Positions 19,741 to 51,746 of a stretch of DNA of 64,000 bases are shown here, in pieces. The stretch is from a virus (lineage: Duplodnaviria > Caudoviricetes). Each line of letters begins with the position of its first letter. Position 1 is the first letter of the stretch. The stretch covers positions 32,001 to 96,000 of the IMG/VR virus record IMGVR_UViG_2061766007_000586; one strand, written 5' to 3'. A program made the position numbers and the translations under genes. The notes below the pieces were generated by a model. That model made no database searches. It worked only from the letters and a program-made list of their open reading frames with translations, and was not told the DNA's origin.

Positions 19741-20217
19741 TTACGATCTGAACAGACTGACAAGTCCGTAGACTGCCAGTCCAATGATGGCGAATCCGGC
19801 AACGGCGCAGATGCGCTGGCGACGACGAATTCTTTTCATCTCAGCCTGAAATTCAGGGCTGTTGATTGTTGCATCAACAATGATCTTGGAAAGTTCTTCC
19901 GACGTCCTTTTGACAGACTCATTGAACTCTTTGCCAATCTCTTCAGATCTCTTCTTGATCTCTTTCTCATGAACTTTGTTTTCCGTGAGTTTGACAAGTT
20001 CGCCGAAAGTTCCGTCCTTCTTGAAATGATTGATTTCTTCCGTCGTAAAGACAATACCGAATTCGTTCTCGAGATCATTCACCGTACCGATGACAGTGAG
20101 TCCATCCACACCCAAATCATCAATGAGACGGTCAGTATCAACGATTTCTTTTTCGCTCTTGGCGAAAAGACCATAGTTGTCACGAAGCATAGTTTCGACA
20201 GTTTCTCTGATTTCCAT
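19741..20217 (-). CDS. acyl-carrier-protein-like domain (DGL in place of DSL) with coiled coil and C-terminal TM helix
   Basis: LIDDLGVDGLTVIGTVNDLENEFGIVF...TFGELV follows the ACP pattern; basic stretch then a hydrophobic tail. Confidence 0.65.
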   Translation of the reverse strand: MEIRETVETMLRDNYGLFAKSEKEIVDTDRLIDDLGVDGLTVIGTVNDLENEFGIVFTTEEINHFKKDGTFGELVKLTENKVHEKEIKKRSEEIGKEFNESVKRTSEELSKIIVDATINSPEFQAEMKRIRRRQRICAVAGFAIIGLAVYGLVSLFRS

Positions 20218-20351
20218 AACGACAAACTCCTTGTTTGGATTAAAGATAACGTTCGAGAAAGGCTACGAGCATATTACCAAAGATACGCCCATATCCATTT
20301 GTGAAGCTGAACGCAAGACGTTCAGCGTCAAGATGAATCTGATACATAAGG

Positions 20352-20666
20352 TTACTCCTTAGTACAGACCCCCACGATAACAAGACCAACGATCAAAACG
20401 CCGCAAATGGCAGCCGAAATAATATTTGCTGTTCTCTGCGCCTTTCTGTCAGCTTCCTGCTGTTCATGAAGAATACGAGCCATGATACTGTTTGCCTGCT
20501 CTCCAAAATTATGAACCATCTGAGCATTCATGGCACGACGTTCGGCGGAAGCTTTATTGATCGTACGCTGCAGCTTTTCCGCGAGGACTTGATTGTAGTC
20601 AGAATCGTTGTGAGGTCCGTGGTTGACTTTATAAAGATCGGGACGAATGGTAGTGGTGTTAGGCAT
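20352..20666 (-). CDS. small C-terminally anchored membrane protein
   Basis: AAGGAG RBS; C-terminal IISAAICGVLIVGLVIVGV. Confidence 0.6.
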   Translation of the reverse strand: MPNTTTIRPDLYKVNHGPHNDSDYNQVLAEKLQRTINKASAERRAMNAQMVHNFGEQANSIMARILHEQQEADRKAQRTANIISAAICGVLIVGLVIVGVCTKE

Positions 20667-20678
20667 AGGAAAATCTCC

Positions 20679-20957
20679 TTAATTTTTGGTTACAAGATAA
20701 GTGATAGCGGCACTGAGAACGGCTGCGCTGAGAATCAAACCACCAGCAATCACCATGGTAACTTTATTGTGATGCTCAAGAAACTGAATATAATCTTTAT
20801 CACACTGAATCAGTTTCTCTTGATCTTCGATATGATCCTCAAGCACGGTGATATATTCCTTAGTCGGTCCATCGATTGCTTCATTAGATTTAATCAGCTG
20901 ATCGATCGTTTTTTGTATGCTATGAAAAGAAGCATTTATGTTTTGTTTAGTAGCCAT
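20679..20957 (-). CDS. small C-terminally anchored membrane protein
   Basis: AAGGAG RBS; coiled coil plus hydrophobic tail; early promoter upstream. Confidence 0.6.
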   Translation of the reverse strand: MATKQNINASFHSIQKTIDQLIKSNEAIDGPTKEYITVLEDHIEDQEKLIQCDKDYIQFLEHHNKVTMVIAGGLILSAAVLSAAITYLVTKN

Positions 20958-20995
20958 AGTGATTTCTCCTTAATTAATTTTGGTTTATTGCCTTT

Positions 20996-21003
20996 GTAAT
21001 ATA
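20996..21003 (-). promoter_or_regulatory. early-type promoter TATATTAC
   Basis: Matches the phiKZ early consensus; recurs before many minus-strand genes. Confidence 0.65.
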
Positions 21004-21034
21004 TACGCATTATTTTTTCAAAAACAAAAAAGAA

Positions 21035-21060
21035 GTAGAGGCCCAATTAAGGGTCTCTAC
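21035..21060 (-). terminator. intrinsic terminator
   Basis: GTAGAGGCCC / GGGTCTCTAC hairpin with a minus-strand T tract. Confidence 0.65.
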
Positions 21061-21070
21061 TCTATGTTGA

Positions 21071-21376
21071 TCAGATATGATCAATCTCACCGTTCTCAAG
21101 CTTCTTGAGGAACTCTTCATTCGGGATAAGAGTTTCATGAAGGAACTTGACGCACTGCTTGTGAAGTTCGACATATTCAGGACTGGAATTTTCAGGAAGA
21201 GGTCTTGCAAGGAACACTTCGAGATCTTCTACATCCAGTTTCGGTTCATTTTTCATTTCCTCTTCACGTTCCACCGGATCCAGTGAATATAGAGTATCCG
21301 GATGCTTTTTGAGCAGATTGTCATGATAATCTTCGTACCGCTTGATGTTGGCGTTGATTTCTTCGAGAGTTTTCAT
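21071..21376 (-). CDS. hypothetical early protein
   Basis: AAGGAG RBS, own terminator, variant early promoter upstream. Confidence 0.6.
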   Translation of the reverse strand: MKTLEEINANIKRYEDYHDNLLKKHPDTLYSLDPVEREEEMKNEPKLDVEDLEVFLARPLPENSSPEYVELHKQCVKFLHETLIPNEEFLKKLENGEIDHI

Positions 21377-21483
21377 AGTGATTCTCCTTAAATTGATTTG
21401 GGTTTATTTTACGGCGGAATAATAAACAATCTCTTTCATGCTAGATAGGTATATATACCTAAAAATTAAATGAAATATTGAAA

Positions 21484-21514
21484 TATACTCGTAGGACTAT
21501 GTCCTACGAGTATA
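21484..21514 (-). terminator. terminator hairpin
   Basis: TATACTCGTAGGAC-tat-GTCCTACGAGTATA. Confidence 0.65.
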
Positions 21515-21518
21515 AGAA

Positions 21519-22304
21519 TTAGCGTCGACGATATTCGTAAACTTGTCCACCAGTACAAATTACAGAAGCACCTTCATAAACAATGATTTCATTTACGTTG
21601 TTATCTTTTAAGAATACAACTCCATCATCAATCATAAGTGTTCCGTAAACCTGTAAACCTTCTACAACCGCACCTTCGTAAAGATGAAGAGATCCACCTT
21701 TTTCCACAACTGCATATTCAATACGTCCGCCTTTATACACATCTACTGTAGATGTAATCTTAGATCCATATACAACAGTACCATCGTGTACAGTTGCAGG
21801 TTGACTTAAATCATTTGTAATGAGAGAAGGTGTAAGACGAATCAATGTGGTCCAATCAATACCATAAATGCCAGTTGCATGTACAACACCGCCATTCTCT
21901 TTTAAATTTAAAAAATAAGAATTAGCGTACTTTGTAATATCAATATTTACAGTCTGTCCAGGGTTGACTTGGACTGCCGGTTTACTAAAATCTGTGATAT
22001 AATCATTCATAGGTTTAGGTTCATCTTCCAAGGTTAAATCGGTGATATCATCAGAAGCCACTGCTTTTGATAAATTGGTGGAATGATTAATCGCCATTCC
22101 AAGGATAAGTGCTGTTACTACAAACAAGGCGCTTAAATAAACATGTTTCACTATCATTTCGCTTTCTCGCTTTTCTTGTAAAGTTATAATTTTAGGTGGA
22201 ATATAACGCATTAAATAAAACCTCATTTTGTACGTTACATTATAATGTCTAATTCGATCAAAAAAAGATCCACCATGTTTAACATGGTGGATTCTTATAT
22301 CCAT
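21519..22304 (-). CDS. membrane-anchored beta-helix repeat protein (true start possibly 22157)
   Basis: TM-like segment VYLSALFVVTALILGMAI; C-terminal VYKGG / VEKGG / LYEGA repeats. Confidence 0.5.
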   Translation of the reverse strand: MDIRIHHVKHGGSFFDRIRHYNVTYKMRFYLMRYIPPKIITLQEKRESEMIVKHVYLSALFVVTALILGMAINHSTNLSKAVASDDITDLTLEDEPKPMNDYITDFSKPAVQVNPGQTVNIDITKYANSYFLNLKENGGVVHATGIYGIDWTTLIRLTPSLITNDLSQPATVHDGTVVYGSKITSTVDVYKGGRIEYAVVEKGGSLHLYEGAVVEGLQVYGTLMIDDGVVFLKDNNVNEIIVYEGASVICTGGQVYEYRRR

Positions 22305-22815
22305 CTAACGTAAAGTCATCTGGGTTAAAGAACTGACGTGCGATCGACATACACTGTTGTTCTTCCCAGATTCGATGAGTATTCACATCACTTTGTGACT
22401 CATCTAGATAGAATTTCTCCCCATCAATGATTGCAATAGCTAATCCTCGCTTGTAAGTCTCAAATCGTCTAATACGATTCAATGGTAACAACACACGAGC
22501 ATGCTGCTTCGTATCAACTGATAAATCAAAAGCAGGAAGATCTTCTGTAGATAATCCATCAGTAGGATTATTTTGACACCATTCACGAAATGCATTCGTA
22601 ATCTTGGATTTGATATTACGAATGTTTTCTTTCATTGTGTACATTCTTCTTCCTGTTTCATAATTACAGATTACTTGACAGAGAGGAATTCTGTTTGTAC
22701 CAAGATCAATCGGATTTAAATCATAGACTGCTGTAATACGATCTACAGGGAGATCATACACAAGCCCCTTTTTGATTCCGTTGAACTCTTCTAAACTGAT
22801 TGTGAAGTTAATCAT
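22279..22815 (-). CDS. hypothetical protein with an apparent internal duplication
   Basis: AGGAGG RBS; LPVDRITAV and LPLNRIRRF halves. Confidence 0.55.
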   Translation of the reverse strand: MINFTISLEEFNGIKKGLVYDLPVDRITAVYDLNPIDLGTNRIPLCQVICNYETGRRMYTMKENIRNIKSKITNAFREWCQNNPTDGLSTEDLPAFDLSVDTKQHARVLLPLNRIRRFETYKRGLAIAIIDGEKFYLDESQSDVNTHRIWEEQQCMSIARQFFNPDDFTLDGYKNPPC

Positions 22816-22860
22816 AATTCCTCCTGTGTTGGAATAAAGTGAAAATCTCTATTCTAATTC

Positions 22861-22910
22861 AAAAAATCAGATATCACGCATAAGGAGAATTATGAAAACG
22901 TGATATCTGA
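22861..22910 (-). terminator. DNA polymerase terminator with an anti-SD loop
   Basis: 12-bp arms TCAGATATCACG / CGTGATATCTGA, inner CATAA/TTATG stem, T6 tract on the minus strand. Confidence 0.7.
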
Positions 22911-22914
22911 CTCC

Positions 22915-23234
22915 TCACTCCTGACCAAGAATGTACTTGTCCATTTCATCAAAGTCTGGTAACCCAAACTCATCATGACAGACTTGTACTGCATTTTCTT
23001 CAGGAGTGAAATAAGATCCAAAGAAATTCTCAATAAACACAGTATTCTCCATAACAGCTTCATCATAGCTGTTCTTGAGCATAGTGTGTCGTTTAGCATC
23101 TTTTTCGTTTTGAAGTTCATCCCATATATCGTTGAGTTCTTTCAACGTATGAGGTGCTCCTTCAATCCATAACACGGATGCATATCGAGATTCTCTGGAT
23201 AAGTTAGTTGACATCTGAATCGATGGATACAGTG
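22915..23234 (-). CDS. DNA polymerase B N-terminal subunit, exon 2
   Basis: Begins (T)CA CTG TAT CCA TCG = SLYPS after splicing. Confidence 0.85.
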
Positions 23235-23557
23235 CAAACCATATAAGACATATATACTTATAGTTTGTTTGGATCATATCACCATCCTGAATATATCAGG
23301 AGCTTCCCATTTCGGATAACCTACTCTCTTTCGAGATGATCTCTGAACCTTCTTCTTTTCAGAAGCTTGGATGCTGATTTTAGATTGTCACACTTTTTAG
23401 TCTTTCGACATGAAGCAACTTGTTTCTTTTTTCTATCTTTCGATCACATTCACAATTATCTTTTCAGATTTTGTTGTAGTGAAACAAGTATTACTAAGTC
23501 CCAGCAGTTAAGGAAGTTTTTCACGCTCAGTTACCTGATCGTGGCGCCACTATGTTA
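23235..23557 (-). ncRNA. group I self-splicing intron, 323 nt, no homing endonuclease
   Basis: P (AACTGCTGGGA), Q (AATCAGCA), R (GTTCAGAGATCATC) and S (GATATGATCC) elements; P3 CTTCC/GGAAG; P7 GATCA/TGATC; 5' exon ends in U, intron ends in G; P1 and P10 pairings present. Confidence 0.9.
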
Positions 23558-24989
23558 ACGCAGCATCGATATCATTTACCAACATTTCAATTGAAGTTTC
23601 AGCCGATATCTCTTTGAGATGTCGAGTACCTTTGACTTCTAGTAAGTTCGGACTTAATACAGCACCACCAATATTCGCTATGAACTTATCCCATTCTTGG
23701 CTCATATTACATGGTGCTACAATAGATCCGGAAATACTATTTATATTGGTTCGACAATAGTTAAACCAATTGTTCTTGAGCATAACTGTTTGTTTACTAT
23801 ATTCAGATAATTCTGAAATACCAACCAAGATCATCATCGATGTTGTATCTTGTGTTACAGCATCAATAATACATGGAAGGATCGTATCGAAACAGTTGTA
23901 AATGCAATAGCCAACTTGATCATGCAACTGCATATTGGTGTGAGAATTATTAGCTCCGAATTTGATCTTACCAGAGCCTACCATTTTCTGTCCAATATAT
24001 TCCAACGTATAGAAGTTCTCTCTACCTTGGACTTTTCTCAAGCGACTATAAAGACACATTGGATCGTACCAACGTGTATATCCTGGAGCTTCTACCTGAT
24101 GCCAAGAATCAGTGAAATGTTCCACTTGTTTAGAATCAGGTTTCCATCTAAAGAATCTCCATTTCTTAGGTACATCAGGATGACAGAATAATTGAGACAG
24201 ATCAATACGATGGAATTGAGAACGCTTCTCAATATACGGAATATCGTAAGAGATGTTCCAAACACCGCATAGATCTGGTTTACAAGAAATTGCAGTAGAG
24301 ATGAGTTTGATAATAAGTTCACGTTCATCTTCACAATAGATAAACTTAAAGTTATGTGGATTTGCATCCCATACTTTTCGAGCTTTATCATTCAATCCAT
24401 CTACAAACGGAGCAGTTTCTTTTTCCAGTCGTTCTCGCATGACAGACTCATCTAAACTACACCACGGTTTATTGATAAACTCGTAAGTAGTTCGTGTAAG
24501 CCAATCAGTATAAGACGCACAGAGAATCTGATTATCGAAATCATCAATAACAGACGTTTCAATATCCAGCATCCCTATATCAATTCTTGGAACGACTTCA
24601 TTCACATTCTGCATATACTCGATTTTCATTCTGATCAATGGACCAACATCAATCCCATACACATGTGGATCTGATTTCTGTGGAACATTGTTGAATGGAG
24701 CTCGATACATCCCTAGAGCATGAGCAATATGTTGATACAGATTCTTATATTGACAAACATAAGTATCTAATCGATCTAAAGACTCACGCTCTAGACGAAT
24801 GTTCTGATGTCTAAATTGTGGTTTTGTAATCCAATATTCAAACTTTGGATTTTGTATTACATGAAGTTTGTGATCACCTGTTTTAACGTTTTTGATTGCT
24901 GCAACAATTGCATCATCAAAATCTGTTTCTTCAGATGGTTTTATATAAACACCATGTAACATGTTGTAATCTGGATAAGGGTTATACAT
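23558..24989 (-). CDS. DNA polymerase B N-terminal subunit (3'-5' exonuclease plus motif A; phiKZ gp82-like), exon 1
   Basis: ExoI DIET, ExoII WNISYDIPYI, ExoIII YNCFD, GGAV; ends at DIDAA; spliced product is 583 aa. Confidence 0.88.
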
Positions 24990-25011
24990 AAATAAGTTCC
25001 TTTCTTATATT

Positions 25012-25019
25012 GTAATATA
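25012..25019 (-). promoter_or_regulatory. early-type promoter TATATTAC
   Basis: Upstream of the DNA polymerase gene. Confidence 0.6.
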
Positions 25020-25045
25020 TAGTTTTAGAACTTATGAGATAACTC

Positions 25046-26581
25046 TTAATCTTCAAGCTGATAAGGCTGTGCAAAATTACTTCCTTCATCTGTGTAATAA
25101 ATAATACCAGCTTCTTTAACAACCAATTTATTACGATAAATAAATAACCATAACAAATAAGGCATAAGTCTCTGGAAGATTTTAGGATGTCCCGCACCAG
25201 TGCATTTGTATTCAGCTGTAATAGCTTTTTCATCAAACTTATACAACTCTTCCAATCTTTGACATACATCAAAGAATAATTCACAAAATTTATCAAAGTA
25301 AACTTTCTTTGCAATAAAGTTACAACGAACTGGAATCGGTACAAGTTCATCCATCATAGCATCTTTCCAAATCTTGTGACCGTAGTCGTAATGATACGTA
25401 CGAACAATATCTTCAAGATGATGATAGAATGCATTACCAAATTCTTTACACATAAACGAAATGATGTTACGAGTATATTTATTTATAAACTGTAATTGAC
25501 GTCTACCAACTACAATGTCATATTGCATGAAATCATACTCCATTGTATTCAAATCATCTCTTGTATGACTTTTTGCAACACAAGCAAGATCATTGTAACA
25601 AATATATCCTTGTACCTGATCTGGAGTGAAGCAGAATCCATTAATTAACCACATATCGGAACAATGGAATCCAACACCAGACTGATCAGATACACTCTTA
25701 TCCATTTTCCATGCAGCATAAAGCGCAGTTAATGGACCATACAAATTGTATCTAGGAAGAAGAGGATTTTCGATATCGTCATCGTGAAGACAATTATCTA
25801 ATTTCTCACCCATTGCTTTTGTACATTGAACTGGAATGAATCTTCTTTGAGCTTTTGGCATAGCAATTTTTTCTTCTAATGCCACATAAACGTGATTTAC
25901 AGTAGCATCAGTGATTGCTTTACTTAATGGATTGATTTTTTCACTTAAATAGATTTGAGCAAGAAAATCAATAGTAGGATCAATATTAACAGATTCATTC
26001 TCTAACCTACCACCCTTGAATACATATTGCCAATTTGCTAATCCGGTCAATACACCTTCAACAAGAACACACATGGCAGGATCAATTGATGAGAAATAAT
26101 TATAGATCGTTCTCAACTGATCTTTATCATTCATGACAAGAAGTGTACTATCTGAAATAGTTCTACCTGGCCAATGAGAACAGAACATACCCTTTTTAGT
26201 AAAGTAAGATACAACTTTATCAGGATGGAAAAGAATCACATCATTTTCCATATGTACAACATACTCATATTCATTTAAACCAATTTCAAGAGCATGCTTG
26301 AAGGAACGAATCCATCCTGGGAAACACAAATCACTTGTTCTTCCTAATATAGGAGTATGATTACGAATATAAAGATTGGAATGCTTAAGTAGATCAGGAT
26401 CTACAGCAGCAATATCTTCTACTGTAATTTCACCATCATTGAACACATAAAAGTCTGGATTTAATTCTTTCAGACTATTGATTTGTTCAAAATTATGAAA
26501 CCAACTAGAGACGCGTTTTAAATAAAATTCTTTCTTAAATTCTGCACAAGTACAGAATATCATCAACTTCGATTTTGCCAT
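25046..26581 (-). CDS. two-domain glycosyltransferase-like protein (GT-A-like plus DUF4422-like)
   Basis: YVVHMENDV acidic motif; FIPVQ...DD...YGPLTALYAAWK...VGFH...CNFIAKKVYFDKFCELFF pattern resembles DUF4422. Confidence 0.6.
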   Translation of the reverse strand: MAKSKLMIFCTCAEFKKEFYLKRVSSWFHNFEQINSLKELNPDFYVFNDGEITVEDIAAVDPDLLKHSNLYIRNHTPILGRTSDLCFPGWIRSFKHALEIGLNEYEYVVHMENDVILFHPDKVVSYFTKKGMFCSHWPGRTISDSTLLVMNDKDQLRTIYNYFSSIDPAMCVLVEGVLTGLANWQYVFKGGRLENESVNIDPTIDFLAQIYLSEKINPLSKAITDATVNHVYVALEEKIAMPKAQRRFIPVQCTKAMGEKLDNCLHDDDIENPLLPRYNLYGPLTALYAAWKMDKSVSDQSGVGFHCSDMWLINGFCFTPDQVQGYICYNDLACVAKSHTRDDLNTMEYDFMQYDIVVGRRQLQFINKYTRNIISFMCKEFGNAFYHHLEDIVRTYHYDYGHKIWKDAMMDELVPIPVRCNFIAKKVYFDKFCELFFDVCQRLEELYKFDEKAITAEYKCTGAGHPKIFQRLMPYLLWLFIYRNKLVVKEAGIIYYTDEGSNFAQPYQLED

Positions 26582-26627
26582 TTTAAAAATCTCCGATACA
26601 AGAGATACCTACCGGTATCTCTTGAGT

Positions 26628-27275
26628 TTATTGTGATTGTGTAGATTCAGATTCAAGAGATGGAAGTTGCATTACATTGACATATGGATTTGGTTCAGCA
26701 TATGGATCCCCATAAGGATCTGCATATGGATCATTTCTTAATTTATCAATGCCTTGTGTCAACATATCAGTAAACTGTTTCATTCTGTCCTGGAAGATTT
26801 TCTCTTGTGACTTAATAGCGTTGCTACATTCTTCAAATGAAACACGACCTAAATCACATAATTGTGGAAGAGCAATATCCGGAAGAACTTCTAATGAACA
26901 ACCATTTAAGAATATGTGACAATGACGATCAATAATAAGACCAGGAAACTCTGGAGTAACTTTGACAAGACCGATTGCCATATCTTTTTTATTTCTGTCG
27001 TTGAACCTACCTGTTGCTGACATAATTGGAAAACTATTGTGCAGCATGATCGGAACAATGTTTTCATACTCTTTCTGTAAGAACAGAGATCCAACTTTGC
27101 TAATTGAGATATAGTGATAGCCTGATTTACCAACAAACATACTTGTTAAGTATTCGACTATATGAGAAACAGGGATAACAGGGAGAGACGCAATTCGCTT
27201 CAGTTCCATTTTCTGTGCGAATATCTCATCTCTATTTTGTTGTTTGCGTAGCTTTTTTTGTCTACGACCACTCAT
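26628..27275 (-). CDS. hypothetical protein with a basic N-terminus and DPY repeats
   Basis: Start reassigned to MSGRRQ (AAGGAG upstream, overlapping the ruvC stop). Confidence 0.55.
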   Translation of the reverse strand: MSGRRQKKLRKQQNRDEIFAQKMELKRIASLPVIPVSHIVEYLTSMFVGKSGYHYISISKVGSLFLQKEYENIVPIMLHNSFPIMSATGRFNDRNKKDMAIGLVKVTPEFPGLIIDRHCHIFLNGCSLEVLPDIALPQLCDLGRVSFEECSNAIKSQEKIFQDRMKQFTDMLTQGIDKLRNDPYADPYGDPYAEPNPYVNVMQLPSLESESTQSQ

Positions 27276-27847
27276 TTGGTGGACTCCTTTGTGTTTGAAG
27301 TTGATTGGAACAAACGCCATTGCGTGTAACCTATTGCAATAGCATCTCCTTCATGTTCCGTTAGTTCGAGATTTTGTAAATCCGAGGAGAACGTAATATC
27401 TTTATGTTTAAAAATCGCTGCTTGAACACCTTCCTTATTGGAAGTACCTATACCTGAAATAAATTTCTTAACAAGTTTAGGTGGTATCTTGTAAAGCGGT
27501 TTTTGATATTCATCACGAAGTAAAAATGATACAGTTAAAATCCAGTGAATCAATGCTTCATAAGCACCAGGTCTTCTTGGATTAAAAAATGCATCCTCAC
27601 TAACTACTATATCAGGTTGATAATGATCCATAAGTTCTCGAATCATACCACGTAATAGAGATAGTGTAATAATACGTTTTCCATAGAGGGATACATCCTC
27701 TCTATGCGATTTATGATCCACGGTCTTGTTAGGTGTAATCATACCAAAGTTTTCTACAAGGAAGCTAGATTTATCATCATTTACTTTTGAGTAAGCAAAT
27801 CCTGAAAACGATAAACCTGGATCAAAACTTAAGATATGATACTCCAT
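27272..27847 (-). CDS. ruvC: RuvC-like Holliday junction resolvase
   Basis: SFDPG, VSEDAF, VKKFISGxGxxxKEGVQ and EHEGDAIAIG catalytic motifs. Confidence 0.9.
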   Translation of the reverse strand: MEYHILSFDPGLSFSGFAYSKVNDDKSSFLVENFGMITPNKTVDHKSHREDVSLYGKRIITLSLLRGMIRELMDHYQPDIVVSEDAFFNPRRPGAYEALIHWILTVSFLLRDEYQKPLYKIPPKLVKKFISGIGTSNKEGVQAAIFKHKDITFSSDLQNLELTEHEGDAIAIGYTQWRLFQSTSNTKESTK

Positions 27848-27849
27848 AA

Positions 27850-28017
27850 TTAATCTTCATCTGAATCTAAATCGTAATCTGGCTCACAGCCTTCTTGAGT
27901 TGCTTCTATTTTATCTTTTGATGGATCAAACGATTCGCAACTATCTAATGTGATCAGAGGAAGCTCTTCTTCTTGAGGCTTCTTCTTTCTCGGTTTTTTA
28001 ACTTTATTCTCAGCCAT
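27850..28017 (-). CDS. 55-aa hypothetical protein (basic N-terminus, acidic C-terminus)
   Basis: Manual translation MAENKVKKPRKKKPQEEELPLITLD...DSDED; abuts the ruvC start. Confidence 0.5.
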   Translation of the reverse strand: MAENKVKKPRKKKPQEEELPLITLDSCESFDPSKDKIEATQEGCEPDYDLDSDED

Positions 28018-28105
28018 AGCAACACCTATAATTCTGTAAATAACTCTACTTTCAATATTTCATCTTTGTAAAAAAGAAAGCAAAGTATCAAAGTAAATTA
28101 GGTTA

Positions 28106-28165
28106 AGTACTTGTGTACAATCCATGCTGCTAGATCACTAGTACATATGATTATACACAAGTACT
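28106..28165. other. long imperfect hairpin
   Basis: AGTACTTGTGTA / TACACAAGTACT arms with nested CTAG-atca-CTAG. Confidence 0.55.
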
Positions 28166-28174
28166 AGGATTTAA

Positions 28175-28657: not shown

Positions 28658-28741
28658 GATAAGATTCCTTTCATTTATAGTTTTTTGTTTAAGTGGAAGA
28701 TTTTATCGTTGCGGTTTTACGATATTTCTCTCCCTATTATA

Positions 28742-28749
28742 GTAATATA
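28742..28749 (-). promoter_or_regulatory. early-type promoter TATATTAC
   Basis: Exact motif. Confidence 0.6.
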
Positions 28750-28856
28750 TAGACGAATTTATTTTGATAGGTCTAAACTATAAATTGTATCATTTATACA
28801 AAAAATTATATTTTATGTAATTTACATTTCACCTATAATAAATAAAGGAAACTACA

Positions 28857-30674: not shown

Positions 30675-30679
30675 AAGAA

Positions 30680-30707
30680 AACCCCGAGCGAGAAATCGCT
30701 CGGGGTT
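30680..30707. terminator. bidirectional terminator
   Basis: AACCCCGAGCGA-gaaa-TCGCTCGGGGTT between convergent genes. Confidence 0.75.
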
Positions 30708-30711
30708 AACT

Positions 30712-30885: not shown

Positions 30886-30920
30886 AAGTGCTCCTTATAT
30901 TTATGGGTTTAACTATAGTA

Positions 30921-40448: not shown

Positions 40449-40451
40449 GAA

Positions 40452-41714: not shown

Positions 41715-41735
41715 ACATCAATCACAATCTATACC

Positions 41736-44132: not shown

Positions 44133-44190
44133 ACATGTACTCCTTTGTGATTTTGAGGTGAATCGCGTATAAAATATCCAGTCAAAACTT

Positions 44191-46287
44191 TTATCTCTTT
44201 AACATGAATCTCAACTTTGTTAAGAAGTCTGTATCGACTACATTTTGAGATTCCGTTTCTTGTTGAATAGCTGAAACAGAGACGTGATCTTCCTGGATCA
44301 TATTCGGATTAAAGATATCTTGAAGTGATTTTAATTCACGTTCATATGTGGCTTTACGAATTGGATTTGCTTCCAGTTGTAAAATGCCTCTTAACTCTTT
44401 AATTCGTTTATCAATTTGTTGATGTCTTGCTTTAACAGAAGGATCAACTGATTCACCGGTGTTTGTTACACCTTGTAAAATCAGATTATTAGGAATACCA
44501 TACATGTGATGATTCTTGCCATACAAAGCAAACCATCCTGCTAACATCATAGACATAGTTAAGTCATCGTGTTGACCAATGATGTGATCGATACGTCCGT
44601 TACGAACTGAAAGAGCTTTGATTTCTTCTGAAAGGTTATAGTCAAAAACACGATCAGCCATAATGTTAAGTTGATTGATCAAGACCTTTCCATATAAATC
44701 ATCACGAGATGCAGCAGTTGTATTATAACCAAAATGCTTGCGATTAATACCCGATGACAGGTCAATTCTATCTAAGTCTTTTGATGTAGTTGACCAATCC
44801 TGTATAAATGTATTGTAGATACGTCTATAAGGAGATTCATGATGAGAAATCATCTTATCAATCAGAACATCAACAAGAACTGCACCATTCTTATTACGTT
44901 CAGGAATAATAACAGAGTTTGGTAATTCTTCCATTAAATCGATTACACATTGTGCAACATGAGTAAAGGATGGTGTATTAACACGACAAGTTGCAATGAC
45001 ACCAAGATCAGTAGGATCAAGAACGCAAAGTGTTGTAAAGTCTTCACCCACATTATCTGAAGTATCACAACCAATAATGTAATGCTTATTTCTATTATCT
45101 TCATTTAAAATAATGGACTTGGATACATACCAGTTCACCGTTAATGTTCCATAAGTACTGTAATCAATTGGCTCGATAACAGAAGCAGCAACTCTCTTCA
45201 ACAACGCTGCAGGAACAACACTGGATCCGGTACCAACCTGCCAAATATTCAAATAGTCTGTTTCAATTTCTACCTGAGTCTTATCTGCAGTAACTCTCTT
45301 TAACCATTCATCGGTTTCACCGAGTTGCTGGTAAGAATACTCTAAGTAGAACATATTGTTTGTAGATTCCCTATCCAAGAATGCTTGTAATGCTTGTCTA
45401 TCAGGAAGATCATACAAAGTTTCTTTAAATCTAGCAGCATGTGATTTAATGCGATAGGCATATGCACCAGCTGGTGAAGCTAACTGACCTGCAGTTGTAG
45501 TAATAATCTTACAAGTAGGTAATCCCATTTCATGTGCAATCTTACTTGCCATATCCATAGAAGCTGCTGCTGATGGATAACTCAAATCAATGTTACGATA
45601 GTAAGCGAACTCGTCCCAGTGCTGTAATGGAATTGTAGCACCACGAGCCTGCTTAGCAGCTGCCAATCTATCGCCTTGAGCTACATAAGTTTTATATTCA
45701 TTATTAAGAGCAGCGTAGCTCAAACCCTCTTTATTATCTGTATCACGTACAGATCTGGACACAAGAAAATCAGGGAGATTATTTCTCATATCTTTCATAC
45801 GTTTAACGTTATCCTGAATCAGGGTATCGTCTTTTGCGAACATTGCTATTGTAGCATTGGTATAACCAAAGTACATAGCCCATGAGTCTAAGGATATAGT
45901 ACCAATCGTTTTACCTTTCTGACGAGGCATTGTGATAAACGTATTGACACTATTTGCAAAGCACCAAGATAGTGCTAAATTAGCACGATTTAACTGATAA
46001 GGAATTGGTGCAGAACCAGGAGCACTGATTCGTATCACTTCTCTTAAATAATACCAAATATTGATTTTACACTCGTGCGCTATTCGCGCAACGAGCTCAC
46101 TACTTGGATCGGTTAAATTATGAGGATCGTACTTTGCCAGTTCAGGCTGACTTAAATGCAGAAAGAATTTGTTATTTTTAATTCCCATACGTTCCAGGAG
46201 GAATACCATACGAATAAAAGATCTATTCTTTGTATTCGTCTGGAGCATTCCTCCCTGTGTCTGATAATCAGCTTGGAACAATAACAT
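44191..46287 (-). CDS. terL: terminase large subunit (phiKZ gp25-like)
   Basis: PRQKGKT Walker A, WDEFAY Walker B, ITTTAG, IGCDTSD and HDD nuclease motifs. Confidence 0.9.
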   Translation of the reverse strand: MLLFQADYQTQGGMLQTNTKNRSFIRMVFLLERMGIKNNKFFLHLSQPELAKYDPHNLTDPSSELVARIAHECKINIWYYLREVIRISAPGSAPIPYQLNRANLALSWCFANSVNTFITMPRQKGKTIGTISLDSWAMYFGYTNATIAMFAKDDTLIQDNVKRMKDMRNNLPDFLVSRSVRDTDNKEGLSYAALNNEYKTYVAQGDRLAAAKQARGATIPLQHWDEFAYYRNIDLSYPSAAASMDMASKIAHEMGLPTCKIITTTAGQLASPAGAYAYRIKSHAARFKETLYDLPDRQALQAFLDRESTNNMFYLEYSYQQLGETDEWLKRVTADKTQVEIETDYLNIWQVGTGSSVVPAALLKRVAASVIEPIDYSTYGTLTVNWYVSKSIILNEDNRNKHYIIGCDTSDNVGEDFTTLCVLDPTDLGVIATCRVNTPSFTHVAQCVIDLMEELPNSVIIPERNKNGAVLVDVLIDKMISHHESPYRRIYNTFIQDWSTTSKDLDRIDLSSGINRKHFGYNTTAASRDDLYGKVLINQLNIMADRVFDYNLSEEIKALSVRNGRIDHIIGQHDDLTMSMMLAGWFALYGKNHHMYGIPNNLILQGVTNTGESVDPSVKARHQQIDKRIKELRGILQLEANPIRKATYERELKSLQDIFNPNMIQEDHVSVSAIQQETESQNVVDTDFLTKLRFMLKR

Positions 46288-46289
46288 AA

Positions 46290-46784
46290 TTAAATTTCAT
46301 CAACACTATTAATAATTGCAGGACGCAGGTTTGCAATCGCACCTGGTTTTGATAATAGAGCTTTGTTACGCTCTCTTAATCTACGACGATTTCTTGCACT
46401 AGCAAATGCTCTCTTCTCATCTGTTGTCAGATAAGCAGAACCATATACTTTACTAATGTGTTTTGTATCTCTATTATAAGAAGCAAGATACCAATTATCT
46501 TTATAATAGATTGCGAATTTTGTGATTGAGAAATTAACCGAACCAATCGCAACAGCATCTCTGAAACGTTCACACTGATCTGCCATATTGATATAGTCTT
46601 CTTTAGTTAATTCCGGCTTAGAAGTATCTTTAATACCAAGCTCTTCTTTAATCTTCTCAATCTTCTTAGCCTTCTTCTCTTTAGGAGGAGTTGGCGTTGC
46701 GTCGACATCTACTTTTGTTTCTACAGGTTCTACAGGTTTAATAACCTTTGATTTAGAACTCTTTTTACTTTTTTTAGAAGCCAT
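46290..46784 (-). CDS. hypothetical Lys-rich protein directly upstream of the terminase
   Basis: AAGGA RBS; stop lies 2 nt from the terminase start. Confidence 0.6.
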   Translation of the reverse strand: MASKKSKKSSKSKVIKPVEPVETKVDVDATPTPPKEKKAKKIEKIKEELGIKDTSKPELTKEDYINMADQCERFRDAVAIGSVNFSITKFAIYYKDNWYLASYNRDTKHISKVYGSAYLTTDEKRAFASARNRRRLRERNKALLSKPGAIANLRPAIINSVDEI

Positions 46785-46807
46785 AATAAAAATCCTTTAA
46801 AAAAGAA

Positions 46808-46837
46808 ATAGAGATAGGGGAGAATCCCTATCTCTAT
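46808..46837 (-). terminator. terminator
   Basis: ATAGAGATAGGG / CCCTATCTCTAT with a minus-strand T tract. Confidence 0.75.
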
Positions 46838-46842
46838 CTATG

Positions 46843-47472
46843 TTACGCTTGAGCGAAAATGTCGTCATCAGGTGGGAGGTTACTTCTTCCACCTGATTTA
46901 TTGCCAAAATCACTCTGGCTGTTATAAGACGATCCACCACCTCTATTACCGCCACTATATCCACCACCCTGATTTTCCATCGGGAAGGACGAAAGCTGAA
47001 CCTGCACCGGAACAACATTTCGAAGATGATGAATTAAATGACTGAAAGTAGTTTCACTCTTCTCATCGGGCGGAATCTCACCCGTACCAAAAGCGATTGC
47101 ATTGATATTGACAATCGGGAAATCATAGTTCTGACCATTTGCCTTCAGAATGATGTGATAAACTTTCTTCTCATCTTTCTTCAGGACTAGAATGTAATCA
47201 AGCTTTCTCTGCTTCTCTTTATAATCATACGTATTATAAACCAGAGAATACTCTTTGCCAGGATCTGCTTTCAGAAGATTTGTCATGTAACGACTAACCA
47301 AGAAGGTTTCATCCTCTTTCAACGACTTGTTGAACAGAGGTTTCTGATTACGATCCGGACCATAAACCGACATCATCAGATGTCCCATCCAGACGCGGAA
47401 TTGTAACGTGCCATCTTTCGAACGATAGCTCGGACCTTTAAGTCTAAGGTCATCAATGTTGTATTTTCCCAT
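46843..47472 (-). CDS. ChmC-like (phiKZ gp67-like) nucleic-acid-binding protein
   Basis: Two genes downstream of SbcD in the chimallin block; beta-rich core with a G/S/N-rich tail ending DDDIF; biased codons. Confidence 0.55.
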   Translation of the reverse strand: MGKYNIDDLRLKGPSYRSKDGTLQFRVWMGHLMMSVYGPDRNQKPLFNKSLKEDETFLVSRYMTNLLKADPGKEYSLVYNTYDYKEKQRKLDYILVLKKDEKKVYHIILKANGQNYDFPIVNINAIAFGTGEIPPDEKSETTFSHLIHHLRNVVPVQVQLSSFPMENQGGGYSGGNRGGGSSYNSQSDFGNKSGGRSNLPPDDDIFAQA

Positions 47473-47493
47473 TCGTGGGTTCTCCTTTACGGG

Positions 47494-48357
47494 TTAAATA
47501 TGATAAGGTAATAAAATTTGGTTTTGATGAAGTTTGGTTTCTATATCTTTTTCTGCTAACAGATACCAAGTCTCTTTTGTCATAGTCTCTATTAGTTTTC
47601 TTTTAGCTCCTCTTTGCAGAGCAGCTTTCATATCTACTTTATCCCCAAGCAAGATATGAGTAGATTGATTAAACGGCAATAAGGGTTTGTTGAATACCAT
47701 CTCACTTAATGCTTCTGCAGTATGTTTAGCTCCAGTGAAGGAAGAGACTAAAATCCACTTATTCATATTAGAGTGAAGGTGATAATCAATAGGATGATGA
47801 CTCACCATCAAAACATTATGAAGATTTTCTGCACTAAGAATATCCTCTTGTAAATGGATGTATGGTGGAATTTTGCCTTCGAAATAAAGCTGAGCAAAAT
47901 TTAATTTCCAATTACCATGTCCATTCTGAGAATACTTAATACGATCTCTTACAATCTGTTCCACTCGAGCAACAAACTGATCAGTAGGAAATCTATAATA
48001 AGTAGAAGGTATGATTGTAGAATAATCTGCTATGTATACTCGAATATATCGAACCATAGGTGTAGTTGGCATACATGCAAAATCTGCTTCAATATTTGAA
48101 ACTAGAATCTGAAGTGTTCGCATGACATTATCAGCTACTGCTTCTAATGTATTTTTAGCAACCATATCTTTTTTCAGTTCAGTTGAGTAAACTGTACTAC
48201 AGACATTTCGACAAATTGTGGAAGCATTAATTAAAATAGTATCAATATCACAATTGGGTGATAATAAAATATTTTGAATTGTTTCACTAACGGGTTGACT
48301 ACCTAAGTCTAATGTACTACCATCTAGACTCATGGTATTAATCAGTTCCTGTTCCAT
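47494..48357 (-). CDS. conserved phiKZ-group protein (gp66-like by synteny), possibly a PIN/5'-nuclease-like fold
   Basis: INASTICRN, VSHHPIDY, LVSSFTG and LPFN...LLGD motifs. Confidence 0.5.
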   Translation of the reverse strand: MEQELINTMSLDGSTLDLGSQPVSETIQNILLSPNCDIDTILINASTICRNVCSTVYSTELKKDMVAKNTLEAVADNVMRTLQILVSNIEADFACMPTTPMVRYIRVYIADYSTIIPSTYYRFPTDQFVARVEQIVRDRIKYSQNGHGNWKLNFAQLYFEGKIPPYIHLQEDILSAENLHNVLMVSHHPIDYHLHSNMNKWILVSSFTGAKHTAEALSEMVFNKPLLPFNQSTHILLGDKVDMKAALQRGAKRKLIETMTKETWYLLAEKDIETKLHQNQILLPYHI

Positions 48358-49462
48358 CTAAAATCTCCTTGATTCTATCCCTAGTGAGCTCGGGATATTT
48401 TTGATGGACGTTGTCATAAATCAGATCAGGTAGATTACTTACTGTTATTAAAGGAAGATCATGCGTAATATCAGTTTGATACATCATGTCTTCTTTCTTA
48501 GCTTCAGTAATATGTTTTTCTGTGAAAACTGCATAAGGATATTTATCCTTCATTGCAGGCATTACAGCACTACCATCTCCGATTAACCGGATATGCATGA
48601 CGCGATTTAAAGCATTCTCGTAAATGAATGCTTGTTCAACGCGTCTATCTAAATACGACATTACCTCTTCTGTCGACGGATGTAAACTTAGATCAATTGT
48701 AATAAAAGGAACTGCCTCTTTATTCCTTATAAATCTAACAATTGATGTATGTTTATCAGGATCGTACTCTGCTGTCCAAAACCCTTTATCTTCTTCTTCA
48801 GCGTGTCTGAATCGTTCAAAGCTTCCACCAGAGATTACTTTATTCCAAATGCTAGGACTATGTACATGACCATTAAAAATATGACAACGTACTTTTGATT
48901 CTAACTTATTGTAGTCCAAACAATCATGTGGTCTAGTCGGTATCGTAGAAGGAAGTAAATGATCCCAAAAACCATGACAACAGAAATAATCTACAGCATC
49001 AAGATGATTTGCATCTAATACATCTAAGATAGCTTGTGTCACATCTTCATGTGGTTGATCATCTGGACAATACAAAATGTCAAGATTATACGGTGTAAAT
49101 CTCTCTACTTCAATCTTTTCAATAATCCGAATAAGTGGAATATCTTTGTACATAGGTATTTCTCTTGCACGATCAATAAATAAACGATTTTGATATCGAT
49201 CATGGGAGAATGTACCACGCAATACTCTAACGTAAATATGATTCTTGACTGCTAATTCAATTAATTCATCGATGATAAAGAGTGCAATGATGCCAGCATC
49301 AGAATTGAGGTTCAGAAGACAATCAAAGAAATCTCCACCCAACAATAGTAATTGTGCAGTTTCAATTTCTGGATACGCATACTTGCGTAAACTTTCATGT
49401 ATTCGATCAAGATAAACTTTTGGAGCACCAATATGAATATCTGTCAAGAATACAATTTTCAT
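48338..49462 (-). CDS. sbcD: SbcD/Mre11-like metallophosphoesterase nuclease
   Basis: TDIH, GGDFFD, GTFSHD, HG, GHVH, GSFER...EEDKGF. Confidence 0.88.
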   Translation of the reverse strand: MKIVFLTDIHIGAPKVYLDRIHESLRKYAYPEIETAQLLLLGGDFFDCLLNLNSDAGIIALFIIDELIELAVKNHIYVRVLRGTFSHDRYQNRLFIDRAREIPMYKDIPLIRIIEKIEVERFTPYNLDILYCPDDQPHEDVTQAILDVLDANHLDAVDYFCCHGFWDHLLPSTIPTRPHDCLDYNKLESKVRCHIFNGHVHSPSIWNKVISGGSFERFRHAEEEDKGFWTAEYDPDKHTSIVRFIRNKEAVPFITIDLSLHPSTEEVMSYLDRRVEQAFIYENALNRVMHIRLIGDGSAVMPAMKDKYPYAVFTEKHITEAKKEDMMYQTDITHDLPLITVSNLPDLIYDNVHQKYPELTRDRIKEILDGTGTD

Positions 49463-50124
49463 AAGAATTCTTCTACCTCTTCCGAACCTGGATTTACTGG
49501 AGTATTATTTCCTTGATATTGCCTAATGATTTCTTCAGATAATTCTTCTCCTGAATCTTCATTCTGCTGAACAGTTTTACCTGACTGAGCTAATGCTTGA
49601 GCTGCCATCTCTTGAGCTTGTTTCTTATTTGTATCAAGCTTATTCTGATCAGTCATGAGATTAATCGCAGTCTGTAAACTTTTGCTATAAGTTTGTTTCT
49701 TACGATCAAATCTATCATCAATGTCTGTTGCCGCAAGATTGTTGAATGCTTGCATGATATTCACACCATCTTTTCCAAGATTGTTCACAACACCAATCTT
49801 GTTATAAATGGCAGGTAGAGTTAAAACAACATTATCAGGTTTCAATAATTCCTCTACTGTAGAGAAACTCATATCTTTTACAATATAGACAGGATGATAA
49901 GGATCAATCCTATTCATGTATTCAAGAGACAAACCTCTTAATTCCTCTGCATTGATATCGCCAGATGTTTCAAACAATCTCTTGTACTGTTCAAAATCTT
50001 CTGTACTCATAATGTTCTTACGATATACTTGAAGATTGAACAAATGTGCCAGCTTCTTCGATTCTTCTGGGTCATCTAATCGATCAAAATCGACTGTACA
50101 ATTATCGTTGTTCTTTAAGTTCAT
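49459..50124 (-). CDS. conserved hypothetical protein of the chimallin block
   Basis: Start reassigned to MNLKNND (AAGGAGG); IDPYHPVYIV...LPAIY motif; overlaps the sbcD start. Confidence 0.55.
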   Translation of the reverse strand: MNLKNNDNCTVDFDRLDDPEESKKLAHLFNLQVYRKNIMSTEDFEQYKRLFETSGDINAEELRGLSLEYMNRIDPYHPVYIVKDMSFSTVEELLKPDNVVLTLPAIYNKIGVVNNLGKDGVNIMQAFNNLAATDIDDRFDRKKQTYSKSLQTAINLMTDQNKLDTNKKQAQEMAAQALAQSGKTVQQNEDSGEELSEEIIRQYQGNNTPVNPGSEEVEEFL

Positions 50125-50211
50125 GTGTACCTCCTTGTGTGTATAAAGTATATAATAAAAATTATTTAAAATTTTTAATAGGATGTGCTCAGATGAGCAC
50201 ATCCTACAAAA

Positions 50212-50601
50212 TTAATGAGCAAGCACAAATAAACCACTATGATCTTTTTTAATACGTTCCATTTGAATAACTGGATTTCCGATACTATCAATAATACGAA
50301 GATCCATAGTGTAACATGTTGGGTCGTTTTCATCAGGAATTACCTTGATATCACAAGTATATTCAGGATAATAATGATGAATAGCCTCGTTCAATAATTG
50401 CTGAATACCTGGCACGAGCTTAGAGCTATCTTCAGTATATTTTGCCATGCTCTTTCTCATACTCAGTAAACTATCATCATACCAAGATGAGATCCATCCT
50501 GGATTAAACATAAGAAATTTTAATAAACTAATCATCTTGTCTGATTTATTCTCAGCAAGTGGATGATTAATATCAAGTTGAGGTACAACTGCTTTTGCCA
50601 T
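50212..50601 (-). CDS. conserved small protein, probably a late virion component
   Basis: Start reassigned to MAKAVVP (AAGGAG); CATTTTATG at 50626-50634. Confidence 0.55.
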   Translation of the reverse strand: MAKAVVPQLDINHPLAENKSDKMISLLKFLMFNPGWISSWYDDSLLSMRKSMAKYTEDSSKLVPGIQQLLNEAIHHYYPEYTCDIKVIPDENDPTCYTMDLRIIDSIGNPVIQMERIKKDHSGLFVLAH

Positions 50602-50625
50602 AATTCTATCTCCTTCAATAAGATT

Positions 50626-50634
50626 CATAAAATG
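50626..50634 (-). promoter_or_regulatory. late-type promoter motif CATTTTATG
   Basis: Exact copy. Confidence 0.5.
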
Positions 50635-50645
50635 AAAAAACAAAG

Positions 50646-50676
50646 CTGTGCTGCATGGAAATTCCATGCAGCACAG
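50646..50676 (-). terminator. terminator
   Basis: CTGTGCTGCATGGAA-a-TTCCATGCAGCACAG. Confidence 0.75.
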
Positions 50677-50682
50677 TGAAGT

Positions 50683-51324
50683 TCAGACAGAAATGGTATT
50701 ACTTAAATCAGTAATATCTCTTCTTTGTCCATCCTCGCCAAGTTCTCTGGCTAATTCTTCCATTAAGAACTTACGAGATTGTTCGAGAATATCCATTTGC
50801 TCTTCCGTCATCTGGAAATCTATCTCTGCCGTATCATAGGTAGAGACGATAGCTTCAGGAAGATTGTCAGCATCGTCTGGATGAATTGTAATTCTACCAT
50901 TCTCAAGCTGTTTGCCATAGACATCCTCATCTGGGAATGTTGCTGGATCCCAGTTCCAAGCAGACAGTTTACCTTCTTTGAATAATTCAAATACGCCTGG
51001 TGTCATCAGGAGTGCAGGTTGCATACAAGCTGGCGCTGCAGCTAGTGCTTCTTCACTATCTATCACACGCCAATGTTCAGGATACAGAACACTTTGTGTA
51101 ACTTCACGTATCAGATTATCAGTTCGAGCAATTTGTCCTTGGATCAATCCCATGAAATTGCGATAATGCTCATTCATAGGATTTGAAATTTGGCCAAAGG
51201 CCACAGAAGCCGTACCACCCCATTTAGAATTGATGTTATCAAGCACAACTTGGCTTTGTACTCCACCAATCAATCCATAAAGTGTAGGTACGTTATCTAT
51301 TTGTTGTAAGGGTGCTACGAACAT
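50683..51324 (-). CDS. conserved chimallin-block protein (phiKZ gp59-like by synteny)
   Basis: APACMQPALLMTP...EDVY...NG and DITD patterns; position after the nvRNAP subunit. Confidence 0.45.
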   Translation of the reverse strand: MFVAPLQQIDNVPTLYGLIGGVQSQVVLDNINSKWGGTASVAFGQISNPMNEHYRNFMGLIQGQIARTDNLIREVTQSVLYPEHWRVIDSEEALAAAPACMQPALLMTPGVFELFKEGKLSAWNWDPATFPDEDVYGKQLENGRITIHPDDADNLPEAIVSTYDTAEIDFQMTEEQMDILEQSRKFLMEELARELGEDGQRRDITDLSNTISV

Positions 51325-51350
51325 GGTAGATCTCCTTGTACGTTGCCCTC

Positions 51351-51746
51351 TTACTCAATTTCTTCCATGGTTACAGTTTCAGCAACCGTCGTCTGTTCCT
51401 CAGGTTGTGTTTCACCTTCAGTAGCAGAAGCTGATTCTTCTGTTGTTTCAACAGAGATCTTAGTTTCAGCAGCCGCTTTCTCTGCTGCTTTCTTCTTATC
51501 AATCTCTGCCTTAACTGCGTTGACAAGATCTTTGATTGTATGGATCGATTCAATTGTCGGATCATCAATATCGATGAAATAGTTTTCTTCACACGACATG
51601 ATGAGTTCCTGAATTTCATACACATCAAGTTTCAGATCATCAACTAAATTTGAGTCCATGGTAATCGAATCGTTCAAGAGTTTATCGTTTGCTTGATAGA
51701 ACTCCTGAATAATCGATTTAATGAGATCGAAGATTTGTTTTGACAT
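51351..51746 (-). CDS. acyl-carrier-protein-like protein (DVY in place of DSL) with an acidic tail
   Basis: ITMDSNLVDDLKLDVYEIQELIMSCEENYFIDIDD...IHTIKDLVNAV aligns with AcpP. Confidence 0.75.
   Translation of the reverse strand: MSKQIFDLIKSIIQEFYQANDKLLNDSITMDSNLVDDLKLDVYEIQELIMSCEENYFIDIDDPTIESIHTIKDLVNAVKAEIDKKKAAEKAAAETKISVETTEESASATEGETQPEEQTTVAETVTMEEIE

Follow-up and report, generated by a model that had tools for sequence, protein, structure and literature searches.

We examined a 64,000-nt stretch of DNA (the window) that covers bases 32001-96000 of the IMG/VR virus record IMGVR_UViG_2061766007_000586, a genome of 318,604 bp rated complete by CheckV. Two genes on the minus strand of the window are our subject: open reading frame (ORF) A (19741..20217), encoding 158 amino acids (aa), and ORF B (51351..51746), encoding 131 aa. 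Both products resemble acyl carrier protein (ACP), and in both the serine to which phosphopantetheine is attached has been replaced. ORF A extends into a predicted membrane anchor and was found in close relatives only, and ORF B has an acidic tail and orthologues in three clades. An earlier note on this DNA had described the two as decoy ACPs that cannot be loaded.

Homology to acyl carrier proteins and loss of the attachment serine

Profile and structure searches placed both proteins among ACPs. ORF B matched the NCBIfam ACP models with an E value of 8.4e-12 (NF002148), the T. thermophilus ACP structure 1x3o in the PDB at 2e-8, and phrog_5934 ("acyl carrier protein") at 3.6e-8; its 14.4 bits against PF00550 fall under the Pfam cutoff. 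ORF A matched the NCBIfam models at 1.8e-6 (NF002150), PDB entry 6lvt at 1.8e-5, and the PHROG acyl carrier protein at 1.2e-3, and it scored 21.4 bits against PF00550, just above the cutoff of 20.8. The AcpP equivalog model TIGR00517 has a cutoff of 70.45 bits, which neither protein reached (38.4 for B and 23.7 for A). Identity to AcpP-type ACPs was 28-34%, with colinear alignments. Pfam matches to Ribosomal_L50 and DUF1493 were dropped, as they reflect a shared ACP-like fold and not family membership.

AlphaFold models of both proteins form the ACP four-helix bundle. The ACP-fold domain of ORF B comprises residues 1-83 (51498..51746, minus strand; isoelectric point of 4.05), with a predicted local distance difference test score (pLDDT) above 90 over residues 31-80. 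A Foldseek search of the PDB with this model returned solved ACPs on top (target-normalized TM score [TMt] of 0.80-0.87; root mean square deviation of ~2.2 Å over 76-83 columns). The corresponding domain of ORF A, residues 1-80 (19978..20217, minus strand), was modeled with a pLDDT of 93.7, and its top Foldseek matches were again solved ACPs (TMt of 0.75-0.84, about 0.8). The models rest on alignments rich in true ACPs, and the fold call is backed by independent sequence statistics as well. By profile and by model, then, ORFs A and B are genuine ACP homologues, and this part of the earlier note holds for both minus-strand genes (E values down to 8e-12, fold TM of about 0.8-0.87, solved ACPs leading the Foldseek results).

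The same note had reported that the serine of the DSL motif is Gly in one protein and Val in the other, which the HMMER alignments bear out: Gly39 of ORF A (codon GGA, 20101..20103, minus strand) and Val42 of ORF B (codon GTG, 51621..51623, minus strand; aligned to 1x3o, 6lvt, and 2ehs) lie opposite this residue. Neither window protein has a Ser in the loop or in the initial turn of helix II. Close relatives of B (86-99% identical) have Val, Thr, or Met at the site. The codons read were GTG and ACG; Met is known from one relative's protein, and an ATG codon would join the other two by single changes. The site is one of only five columns with at least three residue types among these close relatives. 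In distant B orthologues (25-38% identity), the site reads TPP, TPL, TNN, or TEH, and no B orthologue of the sampled clades has Ser there (V/T/M, P, P, N, and E). In A, the site reads G, S, D, or G across the window and its relatives and is among seven hypervariable columns. A check of serine loss in orthologues, which the earlier note had called for, thus came out in its favor for B and partly against it for A, one of whose three relatives has DSL.

The rest of the genome is consistent with a noncarrier role. The complete 318,604-bp sequence gave no match to the phosphopantetheinyl transferase (PPTase) family PF01648, and its only PP-binding matches were A and B themselves. Among the window genes that were scanned, which is as far as this screen went, no ACP-using enzyme was found. 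As far as sequence can tell, neither A nor B can be phosphopantetheinylated at the canonical site. Cys52 of B was considered as an alternative site of acyl attachment and dropped, because ordinary ACPs with Ser among the closest matches have this Cys too and because it lies at the core-facing L46 position.

Loss of the serine was also seen in other ACP-like proteins. Among the 148 ACP-like representatives in public metagenomes that are nearest to ORF B, 17 lack it (T, P, N, Q, E, C, W, D, V, or I at the site). One of these serine-less proteins, P0091, has a signal-like N terminus and several C-terminal membrane helices. Among the nearest small relatives of ORF B, P0026 (L016:1413-1634; 73 aa, with Trp for Ser) is encoded directly before two radical-SAM/SPASM enzymes. 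This cluster does not look like phage DNA, and P0026 represents another kind of serine-less ACP-like protein, perhaps a peptide maturation helper.

Genomic setting of ORF B and ORF A

The most conserved stretch of the B family across the three clades is the core of helix II, E44 to E54 (51585..51617, minus strand), where E44, L48, M50, C52, E53, and E54 are invariant (motif E-x3-L-x-M-x-CEE). Further invariant residues are I9, L38, and D73. Behind the domain, residues 84-131 (51354..51497, minus strand) form a helical extension followed by a Glu/Thr/Pro-rich segment predicted to be disordered (pLDDT of 50-66). With 13 D+E against 5 K+R, this is the acidic tail that had been noticed before. The tails of the relatives P0023, P0027, and P0037 are similar in composition and dissimilar in sequence, and the clade 3 orthologues are almost without a tail. 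Word-based homologue searches found only relatives of A and B at least 86% identical; the distant B orthologues, from at least two clades beyond that of the window, came from an exhaustive search of representatives and a walk along the neighboring 213-aa gene.

ORF B lies in a compact gene unit. Upstream of it, and ending 12 nt 5' of its start codon, is the gene for the beta'-like N-terminal subunit of a non-virion RNA polymerase (nvRNAP) (51759..53228, minus strand; phrog_2987 at 5.1e-86, with the NYDFDGD motif). Downstream is a gene for a 213-aa protein of unknown family (50683..51324, minus strand), which follows ORF B in all relatives. This protein had no Pfam, PHROG, or PADLOC match and no significant similarity to the 215-aa protein in the same position in phage Eowyn. 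Intrinsic-terminator-like hairpins delimit the unit on the minus strand, one with a 16-bp stem and a T run upstream (53267..53303) and one with a 14-bp stem (8 GC) after the 213-aa gene (50646..50676). These strong terminator-like hairpins mark off the genes for nvRNAP beta'-N, B, and the 213-aa protein as one unit. At least three phage clades share the order nvRNAP, B, 213-aa gene, in which 3-15 nt separate the genes, and the longer order from a chimallin-like gene through nvRNAP beta'-N, the ACP-like gene, the 213-aa gene, and a ~130-aa gene on to SbcD is kept in all B orthologues found. No ACP-like gene follows nvRNAP in the three known chimalliviruses that we examined (201phi2-1, RTH11, and Eowyn), where the small genes are not ACP-like. 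ORF B is therefore a lineage-specific insertion that has since been retained.

In two relatives (L009:2-1051 and L019:1374-3871), an insertion splits the nvRNAP beta'-N gene in the region of the catalytic NYDFDGD motif; the window copy is uninterrupted. One insertion carries an HNH-type homing endonuclease ORF, and the other is ~1 kb without a long ORF. These look like mobile intron- or intein-type insertions at the active site.

The gene content points to a giant phage of the nucleus-forming, chimallivirus-like type. The window has a phiKZ-type major capsid gene (phrog_3231; PF25620, PhiKZ_MCP, matches the product of identical length in relatives), and profile scans found SbcD, terminase, NrdD, DNA polymerase, and helicase genes. 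Of the features typical of the Chimalliviridae, the split nvRNAP subunit and PhiKZ_MCP were found, and chimallin was assigned only tentatively, by synteny and a weak profile match. The gene in question encodes 563 aa (53315..55006, minus strand), lies upstream of nvRNAP, after which comes ORF B, and has the place and size of chimallin in 201phi2-1, Eowyn, and RTH11. Profile-profile comparison with hhalign gave a weak match to chimallin (probability of 24%; E value of 8e-4; colinear over 196 columns). Searches of Pfam, PHROG, and the PDB gave no sequence match, and pairwise BLAST to three chimallins was negative. The 563-aa protein is likely a divergent chimallin. The earlier placement of B right after chimallin and the nvRNAP subunit is therefore firm for the polymerase (5e-86) and only likely for chimallin.

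The lineage is far from all cultured ones: compared with those of 283 known phages, known chimalliviruses among them, its nvRNAP subunit shows no more than 24-29% identity. The region gave no megablast match among 50,697 phage records, and searches for related loci in IMG/VR with the nvRNAP and the 213-aa alignments found nothing. A 4.2-kb contig of a related phage (L021; OMSH01000244.1) was binned in RUG828, a rumen metagenome-assembled genome (MAG) labeled uncultured Prevotellaceae. This is a weak hint at host and environment, and it is consistent with the NrdD gene in the window. The habitat of the phage is probably rumen or gut.

ORF A lies elsewhere in the window and is built differently. 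Beyond the ACP-fold domain, helix IV is prolonged into a stalk, a long charged helix of residues ~81-135 (19813..19977, minus strand) that ends in RIRRRQR; DSSP assigned helices H71-117 and H121-157 to the model. The stalk leads into a predicted transmembrane anchor at residues 136-156 (19750..19812, minus strand), which is helical in the model and has a mean Kyte-Doolittle hydropathy of 2.26 over residues 136-154, in agreement with the C-terminal anchor proposed before. By this architecture, ORF A would be a tail-anchored protein whose ACP-like domain sits in the cytoplasm. Its start codon is preceded by a good ribosome-binding site (AAGGAG, 8 nt before the ATG).

Two neighbors of ORF A on the minus strand also encode small proteins with C-terminal anchors. 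The 104-aa neighbor (20352..20666; Kyte-Doolittle mean of 2.91 over residues 82-100) stands beside ORF A in the relatives too. The 92-aa neighbor (20679..20957) is present in the window and absent from close relatives; in two of them (L011 and L012), the flanking genes are only ~120 nt apart. The 92-aa gene is, by this comparison, a recent gain or loss within the tail-anchored cassette. Upstream of the cassette, a motif scan found the promoter-like octamer TATATTAC (20996..21003, minus strand). It has 10 matches against 3.95 expected, mostly just 5' of gene starts, and another copy at 55070-55077 precedes the chimallin-like gene. For phiKZ, the same octamer is listed as the predicted promoter, and it also forms part of the 201phi2-1 consensus (PMC7058600). 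By analogy with phiKZ, the motif supports early expression of the ORF A cassette, as the earlier note had supposed in placing A in an early cluster. A hairpin that may terminate transcription in both directions lies between the major capsid gene and ORF A (19652..19683). The 104-aa gene and ORF A are separated by a 134-nt spacer containing a perfect 8-bp hairpin (GCTGAACG / CGTTCAGC, with a 5-nt loop and no T run; 20306-20326, minus strand) that could be a processing or attenuation signal.

The stretch from the capsid gene to a gene for a 261-aa protein with a beta-helix-like C terminus (window 19615-22304; L021:1689-4208; L022:7245-10071) is a replaceable island. In the clade of the window, it holds a soluble 101-aa protein, two or three small tail-anchored proteins, and ORF A; in relatives with capsids 76-81% identical, it holds unrelated genes for 128 and 312 aa. 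Because unrelated genes occupy the same place in more distant relatives, A lies in a variable island. The 38-kb relative L022, a record only 14% complete, had no PF00550 match. We found three relatives of ORF A, 86-92% identical and all located between the capsid gene and the 104-aa tail-anchored protein, so that the A family consists of four close members. Judging from this distribution, ORF A is a young accessory gene. A direct pairwise comparison of A with B gave no detectable similarity, which argues against a recent duplication. On this comparison and their very different evolutionary status, the two are not a pair.

Selection and possible function

The ratio of nonsynonymous to synonymous substitution rates (dN/dS) among close relatives was 0.14-0.23 for B and 0.18-0.34 for A. 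For nvRNAP it was 0.02-0.04, so that purifying selection on B is weaker than on the polymerase. Comparison of the window with clade 2 gave identities of 37-41% for B, 75% for nvRNAP, 70% for the 213-aa protein, and 77% for SbcD. Divergence much faster than that of its neighbors, together with the absence of the gene from three known chimalliviruses, gives B the usual signature of an accessory, host-facing gene. The substitution rates support purifying selection on both A and B, as opposed to decay; the earlier note had likewise argued for selection, and dN/dS values of 0.14-0.34 and a B family whose orthologues at 25-38% identity all lack Ser speak for it. Separately, we observed that the synonymous rate (dS) of both ACP-like genes between close relatives was 0.18-0.40, against 0.06-0.11 in the adjacent capsid, nvRNAP, and 213-aa genes. 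This two- to fivefold excess suggests recombination or mosaic ancestry of just the two ACP-like genes.

Taken together, A and B are very probably ACP-fold noncarriers that selection has kept as binding modules. What they bind is a more tentative matter. We consider it quite possible, at somewhat less than an even chance, that B acts as an ACP look-alike locked in the apo form and takes up the ACP-docking sites of host enzymes. It would be co-transcribed with the nvRNAP beta'-N and 213-aa genes. The surface under constraint in B is helix II, the partner-docking helix of ACP, with the disordered polyanionic tail behind the domain. Docked in this way, B might block ACP sites on host proteins such as the acyltransferases of phospholipid synthesis or holo-ACP synthase, and its occupancy could divert or shut down host processes that depend on acyl-ACP during infection. 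Apo-ACP inhibits glycerol-3-phosphate acyltransferase more strongly than holo-ACP does (PMC3896788). ACP-fold proteins are also common in unrelated phages in BFVD, a recurrence that suggests a shared host-side target rather than a phage-specific complex. These two points, the fast-evolving accessory character of B, and the precedent of an ACP without cofactor (see below) are our reasons for reading B as a host-docking look-alike. ORF A would display a second ACP-like domain, of independent derivation, on the cytoplasmic side of a membrane; a long helical stalk would carry this domain, and an early-type promoter would drive expression of ORF A alongside other small tail-anchored proteins.

Several observations weigh against this reading. 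Four of five B lineages have Arg or Lys in place of E. coli ACP E41, and the equivalent of D35 is Thr, so a function common to the whole family cannot require the complete canonical acidic docking surface. Helix II of A is without most of the acidic residues (T41, G44, N47, and N51), and its partner is therefore probably a different one, working at a membrane. A occurs in very close relatives only, one of which (P0012, 92% identical) reads DSL at the site, and its loss of Ser could be recent and neutral. The sole hint at the host is the single 4.2-kb contig in a Prevotellaceae MAG, and the tight nvRNAP, B, 213-aa unit in all clades seen fits a phage-internal partner equally well. The decoy idea as originally put forward is still plausible. 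Its nonloadable ACP fold under selection stands, and the residue changes in helix II of A and at the E41 and D35 positions of B weaken the rest.

A phage-internal role would make B an accessory subunit or regulator of nvRNAP, or a partner or chaperone of the 213-aa protein, with the ACP fold as a scaffold only. Its start 12 nt after the beta'-N stop codon in a unit bounded by strong terminators, the conservation of the gene order, with its 3-15-nt gaps, in all clades found, and the acidic disordered tail all agree with such a role. Still, gene order alone is weak evidence in phages, and the three known chimalliviruses have the same nvRNAP subunit without an adjacent ACP-like gene. A tightly co-evolving subunit would also not be expected to diverge, as B does, two to three times as fast as nvRNAP and the 213-aa protein; clade 3 is nearly tailless, and the fold is that of ACP and not of the RNA polymerase delta subunit. 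We judge a phage-internal factor, the chief rival, to be unlikely. That A and B are instead functionless, decaying remnants of a former phage ACP is the least probable explanation, and for B it is largely refuted. Both do evolve faster than the neighboring core genes, and A is limited to close relatives in a variable island, but every copy has an intact reading frame, dN/dS is far less than 1, the models are confident and compact, ORF A has a good ribosome-binding site, and clades with flanking proteins no more than 50-75% identical still share the motifs and synteny of B.

Other rivals keep an ACP-like function or target. If A and B were still carriers, modified at another residue or, for A, in its Ser-bearing variants, they would feed some acyl-transfer reaction; P0012 with its DSL and the Thr found at the site in some B relatives are what such a proposal could draw on. 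It is very improbable, given the lack of Ser in the loop and first helix II turn of the window proteins, the Pro, Asn, or Glu at the site in B orthologues, the absence of a PPTase from the genome and of ACP-using enzymes from the scanned window genes, and a site among the most variable columns, the opposite of active-site behavior. The earlier note had further suggested decoys that blunt the stringent response via SpoT or modulate MukB, structural maintenance of chromosomes proteins, or defense proteins. SpoT and MukB are known ACP partners, solved structures of MukBEF with ACP are among the fold matches (e.g., 9gm6), and B retains E44, E53, and E54. To our knowledge, however, MukB and MukBEF are restricted to gamma-proteobacteria, and the only host hint is Prevotellaceae, which weakens MukB as a target. 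PADLOC matches were below any credible level (NsnC at 0.0023 and Cas10b at 0.0035) and were treated as noise. SpoT has been reported not to interact with apo-ACP (PMC3896788), which speaks against the stringent-response idea for proteins that would be permanently apo, and is also among the points against B as a host-docking look-alike. Targets of this group seem improbable to us, if not quite as much so as a carrier function.

Returning to the host-docking look-alike, one can extend it to a broader proposal, which we regard as doubtful: serine-less ACP look-alikes might be a general, undescribed phage weapon, unloadable mimics that jam host ACP-docking enzymes. In this phage, the soluble form would be produced along with the phage RNA polymerase, and an early membrane-tethered copy would act at the site of the phospholipid and lipid A acyltransferases, possibly tied to the membrane vesicle stage of nucleus-forming phages. 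ACP is among the most connected bacterial proteins, and a phage version that docks but never carries would be a simple means of controlling host lipid and cofactor metabolism. One such gene in the nvRNAP operon of a whole uncultured giant-phage group, plus a membrane-anchored form in the same genome, offers a testable case. The identity of the partner would reveal the purpose of ACP mimicry in phages and could lead to natural inhibitors of the bacterial enzymes that depend on ACP. Were the phage polymerase to be the partner, B would be a new accessory factor for the nvRNAP of nucleus-forming phages.

Relation to known systems

The proteins that A and B most resemble are AcpP and its solved structures (PF00550; TIGR00517; 1x3o, 6lvt/6lvu, 2ehs, and 1l0h), with which they have in common the four-helix fold and, ahead of helix II, the DDL...D motif. 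In helix II, B reads ELIM...EE, as does AcpP from a Prevotellaceae MAG. Unlike AcpP, A and B are without the phosphopantetheine serine, score below the equivalog cutoffs, and come from a phage genome with no PPTase; B has the additional acidic tail, and A has the additional stalk and membrane anchor.

ACP-fold proteins of other large phages are annotated as ACPs or "carrier domain-containing proteins" (PHROG 5934 and 4154; Salmonella phage ViI, Caulobacter phage phiCbK, and Pseudomonas phage pf16). Such ACPs have occasionally been discussed, as for Eneladusvirus (PMC7760394; see also PMC13573597). Searches of 50,697 phage records with tblastn gave no match to either A or B. In the literature searched, we found no paper on serine-less phage ACP mimics or decoys and none that described a tail-anchored ACP-like protein or the presence of an ACP-like gene within an nvRNAP operon, in line with the earlier note, whose author knew of no such system.

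In layout, B recalls the delta subunit (RpoE) of Firmicutes RNA polymerase. The delta subunit of Gram-positive bacteria consists of a small folded domain and a polyanionic tail. The likeness is one of layout only (a small folded N-terminal domain, a polyanionic disordered tail, and, for B, a gene adjoining that of an RNA polymerase subunit), as the fold of delta is unrelated to that of B and there is no homology.

The closest functional analogue is the mitochondrial ACP (mACP) of Plasmodium falciparum, which has no phosphopantetheine and yet is essential, as a pure binding subunit of Isd11-Nfs1 (PMC8547962). Like A and B, which appear to be under selection, it is an ACP homologue retained without its cofactor. 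It differs in being a eukaryotic organelle protein with a known LYR-protein partner; loss of Ser in A and B was independent, and the phage gave no evidence of an LYR-type partner. For an inhibitory look-alike, E. coli itself offers a parallel: apo-ACP, produced together with 'TesA, stops growth (work of Keating and Cronan, reviewed in PMC3896788). There the inhibitor is the host's own over-produced protein; for the phage proteins, binding to the same enzymes is a proposal. Apo-ACP inhibition in E. coli is the closest mechanistic precedent for a serine-less look-alike that acts as an inhibitor.

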